A stretch of 64,000 bases of DNA from Methanobacteriota archaeon. GTDB lineage: Archaea > Thermoplasmatota > Thermoplasmata > SG8-5 > JAGLSY01. The stretch spans positions 192,997 through 256,996 of the forward strand of contig JAEHCQ010000004.1 of assembly GCA_020696385.1 (NCBI GenBank). Direction: 5' to 3'. The notes under the pieces are model-generated. The model was given only the letters and a program-made list of their open reading frames with translations, was not told the DNA's origin and ran no database searches. The position numbers and the translations under genes were made by a program. Shown here in pieces: positions 43,912 to 56,894 of this stretch. The number at the start of each line of letters is the position of its first letter. Within the stretch, counting starts at the first letter, position 1.

Positions 43912-46900
43912 TCAAGAGCCGAAATCTGTCTTATGACATTCCCAATTTGGATATGTATTGGCTGTTCCTGATGGATTAGCTCCAGGATAAAGCCAAGTCC
44001 TTGGAGTCCCAGAAACAAAGATCGAGTAATATCCATTTGCATGCGCGCCAGTGCCGTACATCTCATTATCCGCTCTGGATGGTAAGAAGTGGCATGTCCT
44101 ACATGGAACTTCGCCATTCTCTGTGAAGTCACCATCATTATCGAAGTCCCACATATCTCCTTCCTCAGCATCCTGATGAGCTCCAGTTGTATGCGGATAA
44201 GAACCAGGATGATCCACACCTGTGGTTCCTTCAACATACATCTCGATCCTGGATCCATGGCAGTTACCACATCCAACCGCTGGATTATCCCAGTCTGCTG
44301 TTGCACCTGCCCAGTTGCCCCAACTATTATCCACTCCAGCCACACCTCCTGAATTATCATCCACAGCATTACTGTGGCACCATGTGTTCGTGCAGGTCTG
44401 TGTTGCCGCAGTATATGTGGGGTTGGTCCCTCCCCAGTTGAATTGATCCGAGATGGATGCTGGATCAACTGCTGTGTATACCTGTGTGGTCATATCCACA
44501 TGCTGGCTTGTTCCATAAGTACCAAGACCAGCGGTCGGTGGAGTATTGTAATGGCATTCTGAGCAATCATAATCATACCATGCGAAGTAAACATCCCACC
44601 ATGGTCCGCCATCGTAATTCGTGATGCCGGCCCCATCGCCCCATGTTGTGCCTGCGCTTATTGCATCATATTGGAGAACCCAGTGATCTGCCGTGAGTTG
44701 CTCATCCGTGGCTATGGTAAGCAATGTAGTGCCGCCATTAGTACTCTCTATGATGATGGTCTCCTTGAAACCGCCTCTTCCATCATAATTGCCATCATGA
44801 TCGGCATCCATGTATGCCACCCGGTCAACCGCGTTCGCATTGGATTGGATGTGCTTCCAGGTTCCAGATGGTCCAGCTCCTGTGTACAGTCTTTCTCCTT
44901 GCTCCCAGTAGGTTCCGTCGCCATCCATGTCGAAGCATATGGATTCCTGATAATCGTAAGCATTATCACCGTTAGCATCTGCCCACCAGACATCATCTGT
45001 GGCAACAAAGCGAGTTATATCTGCCAGACCTGGAGTGATAATCTCATCTGGTGAACCAACACCATTCAAACGTCCTGGATCAAGCAGGTAAACGCCGTCA
45101 TTATCGCTTATGACGGCCTCATTCGCATCATATGCTCCATCTCCGTCATTGTCGATGTATGCCAGGTTTCGCGTCGCGCCCCACGCGCCTCCAAAGTTAC
45201 GCGTGTGCTTCAGATGGCTGGCACTGTTTCCAGTGACAGTGCCGCCCAGCTCTCTGTCGGCTCCATCATTGTAATTCGGCATACCGTGGCAATCGCCGCA
45301 GGTCATGGCTGTTAATGAGTTCCATGCGGGAGTGGTGAAGTATATGTCTCCAGCTCCCCCGATATCATATCCATTGCTGTGACAGTAGATATTGTCACAG
45401 GTGTCATCACCATTGTAGGCTGGAGTTACACCACTACTACCGCCATATGTGCCAATGCCAGCGGGGTCGAACAGTACATCCACCTTTCCATCAACGTGAA
45501 GGGTGCTTCCATATGTTGTGTCGGTCCAGCCAGCGGCCGAGGTCCCTGCCACATAATGACATTCTGAACAATTGAAATCATACCAGGGGTCTGCATCTGG
45601 TATGTTATTGCTCGTATGCCTTCTGTGAGCGTAAGATGTCATTGGTATATCGTGGCAATCCCCACACCCTACATTATCCGCGAGCCAATCCGGTGTCACG
45701 CCAGGTGAGAATCCACTGGCATTACCATCACTGTGGCAGTATGTATTGGCGCATAGTGAATTGCTGGTCGCATTGTAGGTCGGTGAAAGTGCATTGGCAT
45801 ATGTCGCTATGCCGACCGTGGATGGAGCGGTTGTATTGAACCTCACCTGCAATGTTCCATCTCCATGCTCGGCTGTTCCATAGGTGTTGTCATACCATCC
45901 ATCTTGATCTCCAGCTGAATTGAAATGACATTGCGAACAATTGTAATCGTAATCTGGAATACTCCAATCAACAACGATATGCTTCACGTGTTGGTAGGAA
46001 TCTGCACCACAGTCTATTCCACCTGGGTGACATGCTCCGCCCCATTCCCTGCCATCTGGATGGCAATTCGCATCATTGACATCACAGGTTCCATATGAGG
46101 CATCGCCTTCTAAAAGTGAACCGGTATTGTCTGGGTATAGATTGGCCGTGGTGATATAAGCGTCAAAGTCACCAGTGAAATCGAAACTGATCTGTCCGTC
46201 AATGTGGGAGAAGGTATTGTCCCCTGGTAAGTATAGGCCAGTCTGCAGATGGCATTCACTGCATATCATATTCGCCCTGGCTGGATTGAGATGTCCAGTA
46301 TGGCTTCCTGTCTCTATTGGGGTTGTATCTGCCCATTCTCCGCCGTGGCATAGATCACAGGCCGCGGTAGTGGCATCTCCCCAGTTGGGAAGCCATGGAG
46401 TTATGGTAGCATCATCATCAGTAACAGCATCATGGCAATAAACATCACATGTATTTCCTGAAACATAATTGACCATGGTCCAGCCCCATTCGGTATTGGT
46501 CTGAAGACCAGGTGGGAATCCCGCGCCTGCATTGTCCCACCATGCTACATCGAAATCACCATCGACGTGGCTTGCGGTCCCATAGGTGCCGTCGGTGGAT
46601 GGACTGCCCGCAACGCTGTCCCAGTGGCATTCTCCGCAACGATAAACCTCTGCCTCCGCATGTTCTGGATGATTATTGGTCAAAGGCTTATTGCCCACGG
46701 TATTGTCTCCGTGGCAGCTACCGCCACCACCCGCACTGCAATAACTGGTCGCAGCATTATCCCACACAGGAGTTGGATCCTTCGCATTGCCATCTACACC
46801 ATCGGTCGGGTCGTGGCAGAAGATATCTGAACAGGTGTCAGTTCCGCTATTCCAAACTCCGGTGAAGGCGGCATTACCGAACTGTAATGCCAGTCCGGTT

Positions 46901-49900
46901 GCAGTGTTATTGAAAACGACCTGAACTTGCCCATCAACATGCTGTGATGTTCCATAAGTTGTGTCATACCAGCCAGAGCCAGCACCTGAACTTCCGGCCA
47001 CGAAATGACATTCTGAACAATTGAAGGTGTATGGAGATCCATTGCTATGCTTCGGATGGCTGGATGTTGTTGGTGCCATGTCGTGGCAGTCTCCACATGC
47101 GACACCTGGTGTGTCCCATTCAGGGGAGGCCGCGTTCCATGAGAAGCTAGCGGGGTATCCATCGCTGTGACAGTATGTGTTGTCACATTCCATATTGGTT
47201 GTCGTGTTGTAGGCTGGTGCCAGGTTATTGGCATATGTCGCAATACCGACTGTGGAAGGAGCGGTGGTATTGAACCTCACCTGCAATGTGCCGTCTCCAT
47301 GCTCGGCTGTTCCATAGGTGGTGTCGTACCATCCATCCTGGTCTCCAGCCGAATTGAAATGACATTGTGAGCAATTGTAATCGTAATCCGGTATGTTCCA
47401 GTCTGCAGCCATGTGTTTGCCATGCTCATTGGAGTCTGCACCGCATAGTATTCCGCTTGGGTGGCATTCTGCAGTTGGGTTATGTCCCTCTGTGGGATCA
47501 AATGGATAATTGTGCTTATAATGGCAGCTTGAAGAAGTACAGTCATCACGGCCACTCACGACCCATGATGTGGAAGTTCCATGGGTGGGTGGTGTTTCTC
47601 TGGGATCTGTAGCATCCACAACACCATTGTCAACAAGATGACATCCTCCAACTCCCATGTCTTGGTCGCCACATCCCTGGATACTGCTTCCTCCGAAGAG
47701 CTGGGCGCCATCATCTGTATCATCTGGTTTCAGTAAATGATCTGGATGGCAGTCCACACACTCCACGGTCCCGTCTGCATCGATAAGGGTGCTGGTGGTG
47801 TGCTTCGCACCATCATTGGTGAAGCTCGTGAAGATGTCCTTCATCCACGGTGTGCTGGCATCCTGATATGGAACTCTCGAGTCCAGATCCGAGTAATGGC
47901 ATACCACGTCGCAGAAGGCATTGTCCACATTGGTGTCCGCAGCCGCTGCATATGTTGTCCAGTCTATATCGACAACATGAGGGATATCATGCGGATACCA
48001 TGGCTCTACTGCCGTGTCATGGCAATCCTCGCAATGTGTGTAATCGTAATTTGATATTGATTCATTAAGATGGTTGATGTATTTTCCGCTTCCAAAGGGA
48101 ACTGGATTGGTTCCAGTATCATCATGGCAGTCGGCACAACTGCTGACAACTCTTGGGTATACCTGTTCGAAGGCCGTTGTGGATGTATTCCACACATTGA
48201 CGGTTTGATCTGGCTCTGTCCAAACTTGGATTATGAGGCCGGAACCGGGTGCAGATGAGAAATCATGCCACATGATATGTATCTCATCAATTGAAACTGT
48301 GTCCTGCTGTACGGCGTCCCCTGAGTTCGTGTCAATGACATTCAGGTATATCGGGCCGGACATCACGGGAATTGATGCGGAATATGCGGTCAATGCGACA
48401 TTGTTTACCGTTATCACAGGAGTATAAGGTCCTCCCTGAATTGTAGAATATCCGATATCGAAATCATCATCACCGGCTGCGCGGCTGGCATTGACCAGTA
48501 ATGTGAGATCGTCCGCTCCAGCGGGTATGGACTCTGTTCGCCAGATATGTTCGAGCGAGTAAGTGCCTCCGACTGATTCGATCCATTGAATTCTTATTCT
48601 TTCAATGGTAACATCATCCGCCTGGCTATCAACAGCATTATCATCCACCACTCTGAGGTAAAGAACACCGGAAGTAGCTCCCGGGAAGTTCCAGTTGTAT
48701 GAAGTGAGTGTATCTGAGTTGATGGTTATCGTGGTCGGATTGTATGTCGCATCATCCGTGGACCATTCTATGGTGAATGTATCATCGGAGCCAGTATTGT
48801 AATTTCCCTCGACATAAAGTGTCAGGGTCGTCGCTCCCGCAGGTATATTGTCCGTGCGCCAACGATGCTCCAGCGAGGCCGTGACAGGATTGCTGACAAG
48901 ATGCTGTATTCGAACAATATCAATGACAACGCTATCCGCCTGGCTGTCTGCTCCATTATTGTCCACAACACTCAGATAAAGAACACCAGATGTTGCTGCT
49001 GGGAAGTTCCATGAATAGGTGGCCATGGCATTGGTATTTATGGTTATTGTCGTTGGATTATAAGTCACATCATCAGTTGACCAGTATATCGTGAATGTAT
49101 CGTCAGAGCCAACTGGATTGTACTGCGCATCCACGAAGAGTGTGAGAGTATCTGCTCCTGGGGCTATATTGTCCGTTCGCCATCTATGCTCGAGGCTGGC
49201 AACAACTGGAATGTTCTCATACCATTCCAGGCGAATTGTATCTATCTGGCAGGTGGTGAGTAATGCATCTCCTGTATTGTCATCTATTATCTGGATGTAA
49301 AGAACACCGATCTCGCCCAGTGGGAAAGTGAATGGCGCGTAGGTGGTCATCGCGACATTGTTTATGTTTATGCCAGTATCCACATATGATATATCATCAT
49401 TTGACCAGAACACACTGAACACATCATCCCCTGGAGCTGTTGATAATGCTCTCACATAAAGATTGAGAGCGGTGTAGCCAGCCGGAATGCTGTCCGTTGT
49501 CCATTTGTGCTCCAGTGAAGGAGCTCCTCCAGCAGTGGTCACAATGACCTTGATGTAATCGAATGATACCGCATCGCCTCCTCCTCCATCATTGTTCTGG
49601 AATCTGACGTCCAGGGTGGATATCTGAGCCAGAGTGGTCACACCCTGGGCAAAGAGATTGTATTGTGCAGTGAGATCCACTTGTCCATTTGTTGGCGTTA
49701 TGCCTGTGGTTGCCTGTGCTCCACCATTCAGTGCCCAAGTGATGGCATTTGATCCAGTGTATCCTCCTTCAACAGAGTATTGGACCTCCAACATGACTCC
49801 GGTCACAGTTCCGCTCATTCCACCAGTGTTGAAGGCATCCATGAAAAGGATCCTGTTCTTATCAACAGTGTACCAGCCATCACCTGCTGCTACCGCACCC

Positions 49901-51654
49901 GGAGAGGCTCCTGCAGTATCATCTGCATTGATCTCGTTTATGAGCTCTGTTGTGGTGTCTGTTCCGCCCACGACACTGGCGAATGCATCTCCACCAACTC
50001 CGCTAGCCGCGACTTCCTGTATGGTCTCGATATCTCCCACAGCGGGGTTTTCATCAATATTCTGCCAGTATGGTGGACCTGCTGTACCGCCCACAGTTCC
50101 TTCAACCGCGATATCGGATGCAACCGTGTAATTGGCCCAAACATCACCGCCAGTAGTCGCCTCAGTTATGGTCTGCGTAAGCCCATCTGATGGATCGATC
50201 TCGTCAATATTGGTGTAAGTGTTGGTGACCGTTCCATGATTAGCCGCATTTAGCTGATCCAGGTCCACTGTGTAATTGGAATAGACATCACCGCCAGAAG
50301 TGATCTCGGTGATGGTTTCAATAAGCCCATCAGCCGGGTTGATCTCATCAATGTTCAGATAACCATTGGCTGCAGGTACGACAGTTCCGTGAACAGCCGC
50401 ATTTGGCTGATCCAAGTCCACTGTATAATTTGCATAATTATTCGCTCCACCAGCGACCTCCTGTATGGTCTGTACTCCAGCTCCATGAGTGTTTGCCTCT
50501 GTTCCTGCAACAGTGCCGTGATTGGCAGCATCCACAGGATCCAGATCCGTGGTGTAATTGGCCCAGGTGTCAACTCCTCCACCACTTCCAACAGGGTCAA
50601 GCCAGTTATATCCACTGTGACATCCCCAGCACAGATCTCCTTCTTTCTGATGGGACATGCCAGTTGCGGTTGTTATCTCATTGAAGATCGTGGTCATATT
50701 TGCGGAAACATGTGTGTCACCACGATCATGGCAGCCATTTAATCGATTCGCACAGGTGATGTTCTTGGCCGCGTGATATTCAGTATCCGCAACCTCCTGG
50801 CTATCAACATGGCAGGAGTCGCACGCTGTGTTCATAAGATGAGTCAGATTGCTCGGTTGTGTCGCTGTATGGTGACCACCGCTGTCGCCCAATCTGGACG
50901 CCACGACATCATTGTGGCACCCACTAACTCCATCTCCACAGCTCACATCATTTACACCAATGTATGTATGGGATTCGCCGGTCTTTGTCCATGTGTATGT
51001 GTTCTCATGCGTTGAAGTGCTGGTCTCCACATTCGTGATCGCGTAGTTCACATCTACAGTGAAATTGTAAAAATCCGGGCGTAAGAAGGTCACGTTCACA
51101 TCGAAGCCAGTATGACAAACGATACAGGCCTCATTAGGTCCTCTGTTGTATATGCTGTTTGGTGCATTGCTGAATAATTCACTGTGTGCTTCAGTAGCGT
51201 AGCTGATATTGGTTGCAACTGTGGGATGACAGCTAATACAAGTAGGCAATGTGGCCGCGTGTTCGTCCCCATACTCCGCAGTAACATCCTGATGACAATC
51301 TGGACATGTCATTCCCTCATGTGGCTCAATACCTGGCGTCCCCAGCATGTTCGTGAACTCCTGGCTAACATCCGCATGGCAATCATCACACGCCTTTCCC
51401 GAGTTCCAATCATGCTGATCAGAAAATAATGAGACTGTAACTGCTCCAATAGATATGGCGGCTATGGCCAGTATCATCATCAAAAGCAGAGCCTTCTTCG
51501 ATACCAATATAGACGGAGTAGAGGTGAACGACTTCGCCGCAGTGGTACTAATAGATGAATCTGCACCCGGGCCGCCCCCGACCTCCGGGTTCATATCTGG
51601 CTGACTATCAATGTCAGGTCCATTTTCTATATCCATTGCCATGTTGATCAGCAA
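43912..51654 (-). CDS. Giant multiheme cytochrome c (2580 aa; 22 CxxCH plus about 13 CX3-9CH)
   Basis: Manual motif count; N-terminal ECN-like modules, heme-free beta-sandwich region, repeated CxxxxCH...CxxCH (Geobacter-type) units; exact start uncertain (ATG 51642 or 51636). Confidence 0.92.
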   Translation of the reverse strand: MLINMAMDIENGPDIDSQPDMNPEVGGGPGADSSISTTAAKSFTSTPSILVSKKALLLMMILAIAAISIGAVTVSLFSDQHDWNSGKACDDCHADVSQEFTNMLGTPGIEPHEGMTCPDCHQDVTAEYGDEHAATLPTCISCHPTVATNISYATEAHSELFSNAPNSIYNRGPNEACIVCHTGFDVNVTFLRPDFYNFTVDVNYAITNVETSTSTHENTYTWTKTGESHTYIGVNDVSCGDGVSGCHNDVVASRLGDSGGHHTATQPSNLTHLMNTACDSCHVDSQEVADTEYHAAKNITCANRLNGCHDRGDTHVSANMTTIFNEITTATGMSHQKEGDLCWGCHSGYNWLDPVGSGGGVDTWANYTTDLDPVDAANHGTVAGTEANTHGAGVQTIQEVAGGANNYANYTVDLDQPNAAVHGTVVPAANGYLNIDEINPADGLIETITEITSGGDVYSNYTVDLDQLNAANHGTVTNTYTNIDEIDPSDGLTQTITEATTGGDVWANYTVASDIAVEGTVGGTAGPPYWQNIDENPAVGDIETIQEVAASGVGGDAFASVVGGTDTTTELINEINADDTAGASPGAVAAGDGWYTVDKNRILFMDAFNTGGMSGTVTGVMLEVQYSVEGGYTGSNAITWALNGGAQATTGITPTNGQVDLTAQYNLFAQGVTTLAQISTLDVRFQNNDGGGGDAVSFDYIKVIVTTAGGAPSLEHKWTTDSIPAGYTALNLYVRALSTAPGDDVFSVFWSNDDISYVDTGININNVAMTTYAPFTFPLGEIGVLYIQIIDDNTGDALLTTCQIDTIRLEWYENIPVVASLEHRWRTDNIAPGADTLTLFVDAQYNPVGSDDTFTIYWSTDDVTYNPTTITINTNAMATYSWNFPAATSGVLYLSVVDNNGADSQADSVVIDIVRIQHLVSNPVTASLEHRWRTDNIPAGATTLTLYVEGNYNTGSDDTFTIEWSTDDATYNPTTITINSDTLTSYNWNFPGATSGVLYLRVVDDNAVDSQADDVTIERIRIQWIESVGGTYSLEHIWRTESIPAGADDLTLLVNASRAAGDDDFDIGYSTIQGGPYTPVITVNNVALTAYSASIPVMSGPIYLNVIDTNSGDAVQQDTVSIDEIHIMWHDFSSAPGSGLIIQVWTEPDQTVNVWNTSTTAFEQVYPRVVSSCADCHDDTGTNPVPFGSGKYINHLNESISNYDYTHCEDCHDTAVEPWYPHDIPHVVDIDWTTYAAAADTNVDNAFCDVVCHYSDLDSRVPYQDASTPWMKDIFTSFTNDGAKHTTSTLIDADGTVECVDCHPDHLLKPDDTDDGAQLFGGSSIQGCGDQDMGVGGCHLVDNGVVDATDPRETPPTHGTSTSWVVSGRDDCTSSSCHYKHNYPFDPTEGHNPTAECHPSGILCGADSNEHGKHMAADWNIPDYDYNCSQCHFNSAGDQDGWYDTTYGTAEHGDGTLQVRFNTTAPSTVGIATYANNLAPAYNTTTNMECDNTYCHSDGYPASFSWNAASPEWDTPGVACGDCHDMAPTTSSHPKHSNGSPYTFNCSECHFVAGSSGAGSGWYDTTYGTSQHVDGQVQVVFNNTATGLALQFGNAAFTGVWNSGTDTCSDIFCHDPTDGVDGNAKDPTPVWDNAATSYCSAGGGGSCHGDNTVGNKPLTNNHPEHAEAEVYRCGECHWDSVAGSPSTDGTYGTASHVDGDFDVAWWDNAGAGFPPGLQTNTEWGWTMVNYVSGNTCDVYCHDAVTDDDATITPWLPNWGDATTAACDLCHGGEWADTTPIETGSHTGHLNPARANMICSECHLQTGLYLPGDNTFSHIDGQISFDFTGDFDAYITTANLYPDNTGSLLEGDASYGTCDVNDANCHPDGREWGGACHPGGIDCGADSYQHVKHIVVDWSIPDYDYNCSQCHFNSAGDQDGWYDNTYGTAEHGDGTLQVRFNTTAPSTVGIATYANALSPTYNATSNSLCANTYCHSDGNASGFSPGVTPDWLADNVGCGDCHDIPMTSYAHRRHTSNNIPDADPWYDFNCSECHYVAGTSAAGWTDTTYGSTLHVDGKVDVLFDPAGIGTYGGSSGVTPAYNGDDTCDNIYCHSNGYDIGGAGDIYFTTPAWNSLTAMTCGDCHGMPNYNDGADRELGGTVTGNSASHLKHTRNFGGAWGATRNLAYIDNDGDGAYDANEAVISDNDGVYLLDPGRLNGVGSPDEIITPGLADITRFVATDDVWWADANGDNAYDYQESICFDMDGDGTYWEQGERLYTGAGPSGTWKHIQSNANAVDRVAYMDADHDGNYDGRGGFKETIIIESTNGGTTLLTIATDEQLTADHWVLQYDAISAGTTWGDGAGITNYDGGPWWDVYFAWYDYDCSECHYNTPPTAGLGTYGTSQHVDMTTQVYTAVDPASISDQFNWGGTNPTYTAATQTCTNTWCHSNAVDDNSGGVAGVDNSWGNWAGATADWDNPAVGCGNCHGSRIEMYVEGTTGVDHPGSYPHTTGAHQDAEEGDMWDFDNDGDFTENGEVPCRTCHFLPSRADNEMYGTGAHANGYYSIFVSGTPRTWLYPGANPSGTANTYPNWECHKTDFGS

Positions 51655-52647: not shown

Positions 52648-53730
52648 TCAGCGTTTGAAGATCGGCTTGCAGTTCACAGCTCGATTCATTCTGTCTGGTC
52701 CCAATAATCTCATCGACATTTCCAGAGTCCAGTTCCTCTTGAAGGCCTTGTCCGCCATCCTCTTTGTATCCAGAGCATTGTCCAGCTCTGGGCCGACATT
52801 CAACCTCCACTCCTCCTCATATTTCTCAAGAGGTGTGTTGTCCTTGAAATGTTCGGATATGACATTGCCAGCGATCCTGCCGCATATCATGGATATCGGT
52901 ATGCCGCCTCCATTTGTCGCCATCACCTGTCCAGCCGCATCCCCGACTATCATGACATTACCCTTGACAGTTTTCGGGATGGGCCCTGATATTGGAACAA
53001 ATCCCGCACTTAGCTGCTCGATCTTTCCCAGGCCTCGGACCTTGAGGAATTTGTCAAGCATCTTCCTCAATGACACATTCCCTGTCTTCTGAATGCCAAG
53101 GCCGACATTCGCTCCGTCGCCCTTTGGGATCACCCAGGCATATCCGCCAGGGGCTATTGTGCCGAAGAACATCTCCACGATCGGCTCGAAATCCCCGGAT
53201 ACCTGTCCGAGCATGCAGGGGCACAGGACATGCTCGACCTGCATTCCCGCGGATCTGGCAACATTGGATTTGAAACCATCTGCTCCGACAACTATCTTTG
53301 CTTTTATGCTTCCTTTATCGGTCTCGACGATGTCGCCCTTCAGGGACTTGAACTTCGTCCCTGTTCGGAGCTCTGCTCCCGCCTCTGTCGCCTTGCTGGC
53401 CAGATGTTTGTCGAAGTATCTTCTATCAACTGTGAATCCTTCAAAATCAATATCATATTTCCGGTTCTTCGGTGATACGAACCGGATCTTCTCCGTCTTC
53501 ATCTTGATAAGCCTGTCATCGATATTGAAAAGCTCTGATTGATCCTTGACACGGGGTATGATCCTTTGCATTTCCTTGGTGGATGGTATGAATTCCCCGC
53601 ATTGAACAGGCTCCCCAACCGCCTTTCTCTGGTCGATGATTATCACATTCAAACCAGACTTGGCTGCATAATGCGCTGTTGAACTTCCAGCAGGCCCGGC
53701 TCCGATAACTGCGACATCGAATTCTTCCAT
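52648..53730 (-). CDS. Geranylgeranyl / prenyl reductase
   Basis: GAGPAGS, GEPVQCGE, APGGYAWVIPKG, GDAAGQV...GGGI. Confidence 0.9.
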   Translation of the reverse strand: MEEFDVAVIGAGPAGSSTAHYAAKSGLNVIIIDQRKAVGEPVQCGEFIPSTKEMQRIIPRVKDQSELFNIDDRLIKMKTEKIRFVSPKNRKYDIDFEGFTVDRRYFDKHLASKATEAGAELRTGTKFKSLKGDIVETDKGSIKAKIVVGADGFKSNVARSAGMQVEHVLCPCMLGQVSGDFEPIVEMFFGTIAPGGYAWVIPKGDGANVGLGIQKTGNVSLRKMLDKFLKVRGLGKIEQLSAGFVPISGPIPKTVKGNVMIVGDAAGQVMATNGGGIPISMICGRIAGNVISEHFKDNTPLEKYEEEWRLNVGPELDNALDTKRMADKAFKRNWTLEMSMRLLGPDRMNRAVNCKPIFKR

Positions 53731-53760
53731 TTTCAATCACTCTGTTCTCGTTAATGATCA

Positions 53761-54732
53761 TCAATGATTTCTGTCCACTGCGAAATCGGACAGTGCCAAT
53801 AGCTTGTCCCACTCTTCAGTTCTGGTATTAATCTGCTCCAATGCATCCCTCGCCTTGTTACCATATACCACGGATAGACTGTTGGCATAATCAATTGAGC
53901 CAACAGCTTTCATTATCCTGATGGCCTCCATTATGTCATCATTGGAGTTCTCATTATTTGTTATGACCTTCTTCATATGGTCATTGTCCGAACCTTCGGA
54001 ATTATTAAGTGCATGAATGGAAAGGATGGTCATTTTACCCTCGTTCAGATCATTCCCTATGGCCTTGCCAGTATTGCTCTTCGAGCCCACCACATCGAGG
54101 ACATCATCCATTATCTGGAAACCGATGCCCATATTGAGCCCGTAATCGCTCAATAGCTCGGTGTCCTTCTCGGAAGCACCAGCCATGAGCCCTCCGGCCT
54201 TTGAACTGGCAGAAATGGGCCCCGCGGTTTTCTGCTCGATGATATTGAGATAATCCTGCTCTGAAAGCTTGACATTCTGGATATTCTGGGATTGTATGAT
54301 CTCACCAATCGCCTGTGATATGCAGGCTCCTGTGATGGTGTCCCTGATCTCCTTATTGTATTCGCTGAGCAATTCGAAAGCTTTGACAAAGAGATAATCA
54401 CCTGTTAAAAGTGCCGCGCTGGTTCCGAACTTCACATGGGCTGTCTGTATGCCTCTTCTCACCACACTTCTGTCATTGATATCATCATGTATCAATGTCC
54501 CTGTGTGGATGAGCTCCATGGATGCCGCCAGGGGAACCGCACTTTGGATGTCTGTGCCGTTCAGGGCCTTGTAGGCGGACAGCATGACAGCTGGCCTGAT
54601 CCTCTTGCCACCTGAATCTATCACGTGGTGGGATACCTTCTCGATAATGGCAATACCACAGTTGATATTGTCGTTAATGATATCATCTACGAGTTTCATT
54701 TCCTCGGATGAGTATAATTCAACGTCCATCAT
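53761..54732 (-). CDS. Polyprenyl diphosphate synthase (probably long-chain)
   Basis: GGKRIRP, HTGTLIHDDIND..RRG, KT, FQIMDDVLD. Confidence 0.92.
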   Translation of the reverse strand: MMDVELYSSEEMKLVDDIINDNINCGIAIIEKVSHHVIDSGGKRIRPAVMLSAYKALNGTDIQSAVPLAASMELIHTGTLIHDDINDRSVVRRGIQTAHVKFGTSAALLTGDYLFVKAFELLSEYNKEIRDTITGACISQAIGEIIQSQNIQNVKLSEQDYLNIIEQKTAGPISASSKAGGLMAGASEKDTELLSDYGLNMGIGFQIMDDVLDVVGSKSNTGKAIGNDLNEGKMTILSIHALNNSEGSDNDHMKKVITNNENSNDDIMEAIRIMKAVGSIDYANSLSVVYGNKARDALEQINTRTEEWDKLLALSDFAVDRNH

Positions 54733-54903
54733 AGCTTTCGAGTGCAGATTATTGATATTCTATATAAAGAGTTCTCACAAATAGTCAATATTATAATCGG
54801 ATAAATTAAGTCTGAAGTGGGTGATAATTGAAGAATATAGGTGATGATGGGGGATATGAACATTTAATTGCTCGAAATGTGAATGAAGGATAAAACAATT
54901 CAT

Positions 54904-55140
54904 TCACATTTCGAGAGTTGCCTTATGGATAACTTTCTGGGCTTTATCTTCCTCAAAGAACATCTTGATGGCTTTAAGAACATGCTTTTGCAGAACTATG
55001 CCCATCATCTTCTCATCGATATTATCTTCATTGAACCCAAGATCCTTGAGTCCTTTTTTCAGGAACATGCCGGCCATGTCTTGATGAACACCATTTGATA
55101 TCAGGGAGGCTTTTACATTTTCATAAATTATATTTCCCAT
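54904..55140 (-). CDS. Small hypothetical protein downstream of nuoD
   Basis: 78-aa ORF starting 16 bp after the nuoD stop, with plausible helical composition. Confidence 0.55.
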   Translation of the reverse strand: MGNIIYENVKASLISNGVHQDMAGMFLKKGLKDLGFNEDNIDEKMMGIVLQKHVLKAIKMFFEEDKAQKVIHKATLEM

Positions 55141-55156
55141 TCATCCGCCCCATTAT

Positions 55157-56245
55157 CTACCTGTCAGTTTCACCAATACAGACATCGATGCTTCCCATTA
55201 TCGAGGGCACATCCGCGATCCTGTTGCCGATAAGTATGGTTGGTGCGGCCGAGATATTGATGAATGCCGGGCTCTTGATATCCACTCTGTATGGCTTATC
55301 TGTACCATTGCCTATCATGTGCATGGATGAGTCGCCTCTTGGATCTGCTGTTCTGGTGAACACCTCTGATCCTTTTGGAGCTGTTTTAGGAACCTTCTGA
55401 GCCATGATGGGGCCAGCTGGCATGTCCTTAAGAGCCTGCTTGATTATGTTCATGCTCTCTCTCATCTCATTCATTCTCACACGGTATCTGGAATAGCAGT
55501 CGCCTCTCTTCTCGACGCAAATGGCGAAATCAAGCTTATCATAAACAAGGTATGGATCATGCCTTCTCAGATCATATGGAACTCCACTGGCACGAAGATT
55601 TGGACCAGTGACTCCCAGGTCAATAGCATCGCCGGGTTTCAATACACCGACCTCCATCGTCCTCATGAGGATCATGTCATTGTCATCCATCATGCCCTCG
55701 TATTCGAGTAATTTCTCCTCAAGAACAGCTATCTGCTTGAGGGTTTCCTCCTCGAATCTGTCAGGGGTGTCATTCCTCACTCCGCCGATCCTCGTGTAAT
55801 CGTACATGAGCCTTCCACCGGAGATCATCTGCATGAGATCCATGAATAATTCACGCTCTCTCATCGGATAAAGGAACATTGTCAATATCCCAAGGTCGGC
55901 AGCGTATGCCGCTAGCCAAAGAAGATGGTTGATGATCCTCTGTATCTCCAATGTGATAACTCTGATATATTGCGCCCTCTCAGGAGCCACAACACCCATG
56001 AGATCCTCTACTGTGAAAACATAAAGCGAACTCCAGGAATGTGCCGAACCATAGCAAAGCCTGTCTGCCAGAGGTATGCTCTGAGGAAAGGTACGGTTCT
56101 CCATGATCTTCTCGATCCCACGGTGAAGGTATCCCACTTCAGGTATTGCATCTGTTATGGTCTCACCGTCGATCTTGACCTTCAATGTCCATAGTCCATG
56201 GGTCATCGGATGTTGCGGACCCATGTTCACCCACATCTCTGCCAT
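55157..56245 (-). CDS. nuoD: Complex I / Fpo-like subunit D
   Basis: NMGPQHPMTHG, GYLHRGIEK, RLCY, IGETDR; no NiFe CxxC pairs. Confidence 0.93.
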   Translation of the reverse strand: MAEMWVNMGPQHPMTHGLWTLKVKIDGETITDAIPEVGYLHRGIEKIMENRTFPQSIPLADRLCYGSAHSWSSLYVFTVEDLMGVVAPERAQYIRVITLEIQRIINHLLWLAAYAADLGILTMFLYPMRERELFMDLMQMISGGRLMYDYTRIGGVRNDTPDRFEEETLKQIAVLEEKLLEYEGMMDDNDMILMRTMEVGVLKPGDAIDLGVTGPNLRASGVPYDLRRHDPYLVYDKLDFAICVEKRGDCYSRYRVRMNEMRESMNIIKQALKDMPAGPIMAQKVPKTAPKGSEVFTRTADPRGDSSMHMIGNGTDKPYRVDIKSPAFINISAAPTILIGNRIADVPSIMGSIDVCIGETDR

Positions 56246-56246
56246 A

Positions 56247-56894
56247 TTATTCAGACCTCCTGCATTCTGCTTGCCATTTTTCAGGCTTATCATTTAATTT
56301 GTAATTCTTCCTCAATGGGAAGAAATCAGCATCGTCCCTCAGCATTATCCTTCTGAGGTCTGGATGGTTCTCGAAATTGATGCCGAACATATCGTATATT
56401 TCCCTTTCATACCAGTTCGCCGCGCGCCATACTCCACAGACCGTGTGGACACTGGGATCATTCTTTGGCAAGGATACGGTGAATACCAAAACTGGTGCGT
56501 GGCTTAGTGAAAAGAGCATGTAGGTGACATCGAAACCAGTTCTTCTGTCTACCCCTGAAATAAAACTCACGCCTTTGTAGTCCATTTCATTCTTCAATAT
56601 ATTGCAGGTCTCGATCAATTTCTCTGCCGATACCTTGAACTCAATCCTTCTGGGCAGTGTGATCTTCATATCCTCTATGTCTGGGAACCTGTCCTTTAAC
56701 ATCTGAAGGACAGTTTGCTCGTCAGTCATCCCGATCATCAGTTTATGTTCGAGCTCATTTATGTCGAACAGCTCTGCCTTATTTTTGGATGACTGCTTTT
56801 GATTGTTGGTTTCTGGAGCCTTTTGATTACGGATGGGTGGCTGGCCTTGTCCGATGATCTCTGGTGCTTCTGGCTGCTCATGCTCATTCATCAA
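56247..56894 (-). CDS. nuoC: Complex I subunit C
   Basis: ANWYEREIYDMFGINFENHPDLRRI...FPLRK. Confidence 0.92.
   Translation of the reverse strand: MMNEHEQPEAPEIIGQGQPPIRNQKAPETNNQKQSSKNKAELFDINELEHKLMIGMTDEQTVLQMLKDRFPDIEDMKITLPRRIEFKVSAEKLIETCNILKNEMDYKGVSFISGVDRRTGFDVTYMLFSLSHAPVLVFTVSLPKNDPSVHTVCGVWRAANWYEREIYDMFGINFENHPDLRRIMLRDDADFFPLRKNYKLNDKPEKWQAECRRSE

Follow-up and report, generated by a model that had tools for sequence, protein, structure and literature searches.

The closest described system to the one considered here is Si3, an insertion in the beta' subunit of cyanobacterial RNA polymerase. The sections of the structural account that deal with its architecture (PMC10895346) describe eight SBHM domains, four of them discontinuous, that form a 150 Å rod in which SBHM-2 to -5 hold elements from distant parts of the chain, and the corresponding section of a 2026 survey of ECOD domains (PMC13114784) treats Si3 as a six-level nested, or recursive, insertion and most insertions as single-level. 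This report concerns a comparable arrangement in an archaeal multi-haem cytochrome, protein P0001, encoded in a 64,000-nucleotide stretch of the Methanobacteriota archaeon assembly GCA_020696385.1 (contig JAEHCQ010000004.1, positions 192,997 to 256,996; this whole stretch is called the window). Within its haem chain, P0001 carries a long insert in which four copies of one domain, here called AB, are likely each split into an N-terminal half (A) and a C-terminal half (B), each copy holding the next, around an intact tip domain; such Russian-doll architectures are rare.

Si3 is an earlier example of recursive insertion within one family; what is new here is the fold family, which has no name, and the setting. 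To judge from the Si3 sections cited above, both systems appear to consist of small beta domains of one family inserted in one another, with the outer copies discontinuous, and both are set in a loop of a larger protein, an enzyme for Si3 and a cytochrome in the window. The likeness is architectural and not one of family, as the fold here is predicted to be a ten-strand jelly roll resembling carbohydrate-binding modules (CBMs) whereas that of Si3 is SBHM. Unlike Si3, the arrangement is hosted by a multi-haem cytochrome and by giant archaeal surface proteins, its depth varies from 0 to 4 among close orthologues, it branches, and its innermost domain is exchangeable. Si3 was also solved experimentally, whereas we infer the nesting in P0001 from comparison with homologues. 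Single-level domain insertion (A1-B-A2) has plain cases in the one-level relatives P0011, P0006 and P0065; unlike in that arrangement, the host family in the window repeatedly serves as its own guest. No description of nesting in a jelly-roll or CBM-like family, or in a cytochrome, was found among open-access papers and preprints, supplements aside.

Order of the elements in the insert

A motif scan of P0001 finds 30 CxnCH motifs and none between residues 346 and 1173. The haem-free stretch so defined, residues 347-1172 (826 residues), is divided as follows, in window coordinates verified by translation.

50566..50616, minus strand: upstream flank SGYNWLDPVGSGGGVDT, residues 347-363, collinear with the uninterrupted linker of P0160
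50434..50565, minus strand: A1, residues 364-407, predicted first three strands of the outermost split jelly roll, proposed partner B4
50281..50433, minus strand: A2, residues 408-458, proposed partner B3, a recent duplicate of A3
50137..50280, minus strand: A3, residues 459-506, proposed partner B2
49987..50136, minus strand: A4, residues 507-556, innermost A, proposed partner B1
49519..49986, minus strand: core or tip domain, residues 557-712 (156 residues), predicted intact jelly roll of a widespread family, no Pfam match here
49198..49518, minus strand: B1, residues 713-819, predicted strands 4-10 of the innermost split jelly roll
48877..49197, minus strand: B2, residues 820-926, from the repeat alignment and profile
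48556..48876, minus strand: B3, residues 927-1033, a recent duplicate of B2
48259..48555, minus strand: B4, residues 1034-1132, outermost B
48139..48258, minus strand: downstream flank, residues 1133-1172 (...GSGLIIQVWTEPDQTVNVWN...), collinear with the uninterrupted linker of P0160

Self-BLASTP of the insert region gave no off-diagonal pairs, and the repeats were then shown by MAFFT alignment and family hidden Markov models (HMMs), which return the element order AAAA-core-BBBB that an earlier note on this DNA had read from the sequence. The A copies start at 50565, 50433, 50280 and 50136 and the B copies at 49518, 49197, 48876 and 48555, in good agreement with the starts given in that note (50571, 50440, 50290 and 50145 for A; 49518, 49197, 48876 and 48559 for B). 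Pairwise identities are 45-71% among the A copies and 42-68% among the B copies; HMM scores are 35-47 bits for the individual A copies (E 1e-10 to 2e-14) and 93-117 bits for the B copies (E 1e-28 to 4e-36), against best scores of 5.4 bits for the A HMM and 10.0 bits for the B HMM in reversed-sequence controls. A six-frame scan found no A, B or core elements elsewhere in the 64-kb window. The most similar copies are A2 and A3 (71% identical in protein, 71.8% in DNA over 170 nt) and B2 and B3 (68% in protein, 72.3% in DNA over 278 nt), and such equal DNA divergence would be expected if an A+B unit had been duplicated at one time.

All four A copies open with an N-Y-T sequon (WANYTT, ANYTVD, SNYTVD and ANYTVA; window 50136-50565, minus strand). 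Nested relatives from archaea share this start, whereas contiguous AB domains of bacteria lack it; it may mark a site of N-glycosylation or simply belong to strand 1.

Predicted fold of contiguous AB domains

Relatives were collected by comparing residues 350-1150 with 1.84 billion representative proteins and taking the best 150 of 174 matches (E up to 0.001); together with a word-indexed search this gave 159 proteins. In at least 16 of them, e.g., P0139, P0149, P0126, P0110 and P0045, A and B are directly joined, with 0-11 residues between them. HMMs made from the four window copies alone find B in contiguous-AB proteins at E 1e-9 to 1e-17 and also, in three such proteins, an A directly before the B (E 2e-4 to 8e-4); after HMM iteration, the A scores in contiguous-AB proteins are 28-57 bits.

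An AlphaFold2 model of P0139 from a 17-row alignment has a predicted local distance difference test (pLDDT) value above 90 over residues 30-175 and contains ten strands, three in the A part (28-38, 42-44 and 58-61) and seven in the B part. Compared by VIA, model residues 26-175 align with whole CBM chains at Z 10-10.9 over 119-139 residues. Foldseek agrees, and MAM or reelin-type jelly rolls are superposed as well; examples among the CBMs are CBM29 1wcu (Z 10.7, root-mean-square deviation 2.8 Å, 121 residues aligned, chain residues 2-140 of 149) and CBM16 2zew (Z 10.1, chain residues 1-146 of 146). The ESM Atlas model of P0139 likewise matches many bacterial clusters over residues 26-174, the best with a template modelling (TM) score of 0.94 over 147 aligned residues. 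Across CBM29, CBM16, CBM4, CBM61 and MAM domains, the contiguous AB model is alignable over its full length at Z of about 10-11 and a deviation of about 3 Å, with sequence identity of 5-14% and no Pfam match above threshold, a likeness of fold only. The nearest Pfam scores are those of F5/8 type C (discoidin), 15.8 bits in P0139 and 15.3 bits in P0149 against a cut-off of 28.2, and this family has no match in P0001.

By these models contiguous AB is predicted to fold as one CBM-like, two-sheet jelly roll in which A supplies strands 1-3 and B strands 4-10. Both the supposition that A and B are halves of one jelly roll, and the expectation that proteins with the two halves side by side would be found, are thereby supported. 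Because contiguous AB models as one domain, B alone would correspond to seven of its ten strands. This bears on a quite different account of the insert, in which two independent tandem arrays occur, A being a short stand-alone repeat or linker and B a complete seven-strand sandwich, present in equal numbers by coincidence or co-amplification. The confident placing of contiguous A within a single domain, where it aligns with the first strands of whole CBMs, argues against such independence.

Insertion point and bracket order in relatives

In every nested relative the guest follows the last residues of A (...I.E..GG) and precedes the first of B (SLEHxW), and this A/B junction corresponds to residues 62-72 of P0139, the predicted loop between strands 3 and 4; this is in keeping with the idea that each copy is inserted in the same loop. 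The guests themselves vary, and include the window's core family, a Cleaved_Adhesin domain in P0006, a lamin-tail (LTD) domain in P0003 (from precomputed Pfam assignments) and others.

Homologues with n A and n B copies, which nesting had been expected to produce, exist for n = 1, 2, 3 and 4 around different cores: one of each in P0011, P0006, P0010 and others, two in P0005, P0014, P0018, P0008 and P0009, three in P0004, and four in the window protein. P0003 reads AAAAcBBBAcBB, then AcB, then AAAcBBAcBB, so that its 10 A and 10 B copies are properly bracketed and branched. Equal numbers at each depth and in branched strings, across different proteins and cores, count against independent A and B arrays. 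An automatic parse, with score floors of 6 bits for A and 11 bits for B, a competing core model, and both P0001 and its database twin P0002 counted, yielded balanced strings in 43 of the 73 proteins in which an A or a B occurs. Only three B-bearing genes are present in the genome to which the window belongs (2.28 Mb, 94% complete), all balanced; the two besides P0001 encode P0009 (L002, contig C11; AAcBB) and a 2893-residue frame (L001, contig C22; AcB, then AAcBB). The latter, like P0009 a giant surface protein, further contains FG-GAP-like repeats and, at residues ~540-700, a long tandem array of GMTNGLTNGLGRTN.

Self-insertion is seen in P0130, P0076 and P0062, where a contiguous AB, its two halves separated by 2-17 residues, is preceded by an outer A and followed by an outer B. 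Because the inner halves are contiguous, all four halves can be assigned without ambiguity, with AB inserted into AB; in P0130 the extra 100 residues map exactly to the A/B junction in the family alignment. Judged by its sequence, with bracket order and equal numbers of N- and C-terminal halves, the window's insert has the form of a recursive same-family insertion.

Proposed pairing of the A and B copies

Intramolecular packing of a split AB is suggested by P0065, which has A at 294-330, a window-type core at 344-475 and B at 480-583. The Atlas cluster that matches the AB domain of P0139 (TM 0.94) aligns with 145 residues of the Atlas P0065 model, across a span of 290 residues (291-580). The TM score of 0.44, normalised to the 306-residue query, is close to its ceiling of 0.47, and 145 residues is roughly what A and B amount to together. 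The output of the tool is limited to the two end residues of the alignment; the span and length of the alignment suggest that A and B are packed together in this model and the core is skipped. Packing of this kind speaks against independent arrays. It also bears on a further account, in which A and B complement each other without an intramolecular nest, either first-in-first-out (A1-B1 through A4-B4, side by side) or with the A array of one molecule completing the B array of its neighbour, as in domain-swapped dimers or a surface lattice. A unit with a single level has to pair across its core, and in the P0065 model this appears to happen within one chain, which disfavours the swapped form. 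In P0130, P0076 and P0062, where the contiguous inner halves leave only the outer A and the outer B to pair, a first-in-first-out order is likewise disfavoured, and such an order would seem to require linkers of 3-8 residues to join opposite poles of neighbouring domains, with the core closing the ring.

Because balanced strings suit a nested (last-in-first-out) and a first-in-first-out order alike, a unit-homology test was made with 53 units of unambiguous pairing (one-level or contiguous), a mapping being accepted where both halves showed 50% identity or more and a lead of 8 points or more. Eight of the 11 clear mappings were nested, including all seven of those from P0011 and P0010 onto the cytochromes P0001, P0004, P0005 and P0014, a result contrary to first-in-first-out or swapped pairing. 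The A of one-level P0011 is nearest to A1 of the window (0.58, the other copies reaching no more than 0.47) and its B is nearest to B4 (0.68, the others no more than 0.53). At the other end of the array, an A4-like half (0.57-0.65) and a B1-like half (0.66-0.78) occur together beside the core in P0004, P0008 and P0009, and the B of P0009, the same-genome paralogue, is 73% identical in DNA to B1 over 315 nt. In a mirror-tree style test of low power, 9 of 12 blocks favoured nested over parallel pairing. A complex prediction for A1 (alignment 5-53) with B4 (5-110) gave 0.08 against a mark of 0.32; as the fold of the partner was uncertain and the run was without controls, it counts neither way. 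Alignments of the short A3 segment to whole proteins were mostly misaligned and were left out. From unit homology and parsimony, we infer that the window's copies pair as A1-B4, A2-B3, A3-B2 and A4-B1.

Points against nesting

Several results weigh against this reading and have to be set beside those above. In the automatic parse, 30 of the 73 proteins were unbalanced. By eye, 16 of these are records that start or stop inside an array (P0007, P0015, P0032, P0077, P0021, P0025, P0030, P0071, P0055, P0119, P0135, P0113, P0128, P0148, P0068 and P0123), and 11 have A- or B-like segments too divergent for the HMM (P0037, P0038, P0039, P0140, P0022, P0047, P0114, P0105, P0042, P0144 and P0152); P0003 appears unbalanced because the loose threshold lets in a weak B that is spurious. 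In P0153 and P0060 a core is followed by an A match with no B, and these two fit neither the fragment class nor the divergent class. No clear counter-example to equal A and B numbers was found among the 73 parsed proteins, which are database records and possibly incomplete.

The predicted fold of the insert itself is also unfavourable. An AlphaFold2 model of residues 355-1145 (21 alignment rows, 3 recycles) has a mean pLDDT of 68.7 and a predicted TM score (pTM) of 0.34, and no nest was built. Model residues 1-198, which contain all four A copies, lie at pLDDT 30-40 with no strands, and the B copies (pLDDT ~65-95) and the core (~90-97) fold without them. The pairing A1-B4 to A4-B1 that structure prediction had been expected to give was thus not reproduced, and the A copies were left unplaced. 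Since almost no correct alignment rows cover A2-A4, this outcome is best read as a failure to test the pairing and is a weak result. For the same model, two independent arrays gain from the confident folding of B1-B4 with A as coil, and from the alignment of B3 alone (model residues 568-671) with solved sugar-binding domains at Z 8.2 (VIA), although that match spans only 94-98 residues of what are larger domains. The earlier note had held that nesting would fail if B folded as a complete domain alone. On this the evidence is divided, as the B copies were modelled without A, and they correspond only to parts, some 95-100 residues long, of larger jelly rolls; the predicted window fold does not cleanly exclude a B that is complete in itself. 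With the evidence from contiguous AB, equal copy numbers and the P0065 model on the other side, independent arrays are considered highly improbable.

For complementation without an intramolecular nest, balanced counts alone are as good a fit as they are for nesting and do not separate the two. Three of the 11 unit-homology mappings are first-in-first-out, from more distant surface proteins with generally B4-type B copies; in the mirror-tree style test the nested permutation did not stand out for the window's copies, ranking 8th of 24; and the window fold paired no A with B within one chain. Set against the uniformly nested mappings from P0011 and P0010 and the contiguous inner units described above, these points leave first-in-first-out or swapped pairing unlikely, though marginally less so than independent arrays. 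Nested insertion, as a whole, is well supported by the comparison with homologues.

Insertion site and orthologues

For the N-terminal haem module, only four other relatives of comparable length were found. Three have an insert at the same site, namely P0004 at depth 3 (module 77% identical), P0011 at depth 1 (72%) and P0005 at depth 2 (63%), and the tips differ among these inserts. Conservation is similar for the two outermost halves among orthologues (A1 0.66-0.71, B4 0.63-0.84), and an A that is conserved about as well as B is a further point against independent arrays. The fourth relative, P0160 (module 35% identical), has no insert at the window's site and carries there a 42-residue linker, SGYDWVDAGTG-ISILVETERNYNVTVWN..., between CWGCH and the next CxxCH. 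This linker is collinear with the two flanks in the window, SGYNWLDPVGSGG... and ...GSGLIIQVWTEPDQTVNVWN. Because P0160 has both flanks contiguous, the stalk would be a loop insertion whose ends meet, and this contiguity fits an insert that leaves the haem arrangement uninterrupted.

P0160 has another haem-free region, at residues ~505-1650 between CTDCH (500) and CSLCH (1651), with five weak B-like HMM matches (9-24 bits) and, by eye, a core with some six A-like segments before it and some six B-like segments after it. It may be a deeper and more divergent nest in a different loop.

Proposed arrangement and role

In the proposed arrangement, the insert (347-1172) interrupts the linker that joins haem 6 to haem 7 in the 30-haem cytochrome. 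The AB jelly roll would tolerate another domain in its strand 3-strand 4 loop, at which the four copies would be split into A halves of ~45 residues (strands 1-3) and B halves of ~105 residues (strands 4-10), each split AB being placed inside the loop of the preceding one. The chain would run outward through A1-A4, form the tip at 557-712 and return through B1-B4, with the pairs A4-B1, A3-B2, A2-B3 and A1-B4 being formed. As both ends of the insert would return to the same point, the two haem modules could stay adjacent. By likeness to the 150 Å rod of Si3, the stalk is presumably elongated.

It is proposed that the insert is a display stalk holding a variable binding tip off the haem body, for a mineral, a polymer or a partner surface. 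This proposal is made because of the out-and-back topology, the variable depth among orthologues, and the exchangeable tips, which include adhesin-type domains in paralogous surface proteins. More broadly, AB might be a self-hosting "bracket" domain, whose loop takes any compact guest including another AB, and which provides archaea with a kit from which to build stalks of adjustable length that can branch and exchange their tips, both on surface proteins and within the haem chain of extracellular cytochromes, A+B cassettes being added or swapped by recombination between paralogues of the same genome. Cassette recombination would explain both why orthologues form a depth series of 0, 1, 2, 3 and 4 and why the A2/A3 and B2/B3 copies have diverged to the same extent; this broader picture is offered tentatively, with doubt slightly outweighing confidence.

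If nesting is correct, a second and unrelated fold has come to Russian-doll folding, which would make it a repeatable evolutionary route to rigid out-and-back stalks, and the variable depth, branching and exchangeable tips would strengthen that point, deep self-insertion having been documented so far mainly for Si3. For protein engineering, a loop able to take in entire domains to a depth of four would offer a natural host scaffold. For extracellular electron transfer, the arrangement suggests how a giant archaeal cytochrome could bear a long arm for adhesion while its haem wire stays unbroken, and it points to a definite tip domain for which a ligand, be it a mineral, a polymer or a partner cell, can be sought. 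It would also be a hard case for structure predictors, AlphaFold2 on a shallow alignment having folded the C-terminal halves alone and dropped the N-terminal halves.

The tip domain

The core family is widespread, being present in 106 of the 159 collected proteins. VIA comparison of the AlphaFold2 core (model residues 198-354) indicates a complete jelly roll (Z 8.0-8.8, 113-133 residues aligned), which superposes on the carbohydrate-binding domain of BcsB, the furin P domain, MAM domains and Eph ligand-binding domains (Z 8-8.8). Pfam gave no match over the core in the relatives P0017 and P0027 at E up to 0.1. The family often occurs as a stand-alone protein of ~230 residues with a signal-like N-terminus (P0044, P0051 and P0054).

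An intact AB-family member at the core had been hinted at, as MAFFT placed contiguous AB rows on the core and the third iteration of the B HMM spread to 148 proteins. This idea was dropped, as hhalign of the core alignment against the AB alignment gave no profile-profile similarity (probability 0.08%, E 0.64); core and AB are taken to share only a general fold.

Host gene and its surroundings

The remaining features of the cytochrome gene are the following.

43912..51654, minus strand: multi-haem cytochrome gene (protein P0001), open reading frame (ORF) of 2580 residues; the database twin P0002 begins four codons later
51421..51501, minus strand: N-terminal hydrophobic stretch, residues 52-78, likely membrane anchor from reading of the translation
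50617..51390, minus strand: N-terminal haem module, residues 89-346, 6 CxxCH motifs by motif scan
44089..48138, minus strand: C-terminal haem region, residues 1173-2522, 24 CxnCH motifs by motif scan

P0001 is a multi-haem cytochrome c by its haem motifs and by profile matches above threshold, with PF14522 at 52.5 bits (cut-off 24.8), PF09698 at 45.3 (21.7) and PF14537 at 27.9 (25); no Pfam family other than cytochrome ones matched at E up to 1. It is probably membrane-anchored and extracellular. Its nearest named relatives are proteins of metagenome-assembled genomes labelled Thermoplasmata or Thermoplasmatota, which makes an archaeon of that group the probable host. Outer-surface cytochromes of the MtrC/OmcA type combine haem modules with non-haem beta domains, in MtrC sequentially and not nested. 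PF22113 scores below threshold just after the insert in P0005 (27.7 bits) and P0014 (23.8 bits; cut-off 30), and has no match in P0001 at E up to 1.

Among the eight neighbouring ORFs scanned, no cytochrome maturation genes were seen. Neighbours at 52648-56293 on the minus strand read as archaeal lipid and respiratory genes, with a geranylgeranyl-reductase-like flavoprotein, a polyprenyl synthetase and a complex-I 49-kDa (NuoD-like) subunit.

The C-terminal haem region has a long, near-identical internal duplication, residues ~1390-1530 and ~1870-2010 (window ~45700-47500, minus strand), which in translation reads ...DWxIPDYDYNCSQCHFNSAGDQDGWYDxTYGTAEHGDGTLQVRFNTTAPSTVGIATYAN... and points to a recent duplication of a haem module. 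A second and smaller haem-free stretch, residues ~2125-2360 (window ~44570-45290, minus strand), lies between CGDCH (2119) and CSECH (2364) and is rich in DxDxDG-like motifs (DNDGDGAYD, DANGDNAYD, DMDGDGTY and DADHDGNYD) that are reminiscent of calcium-binding repeats.

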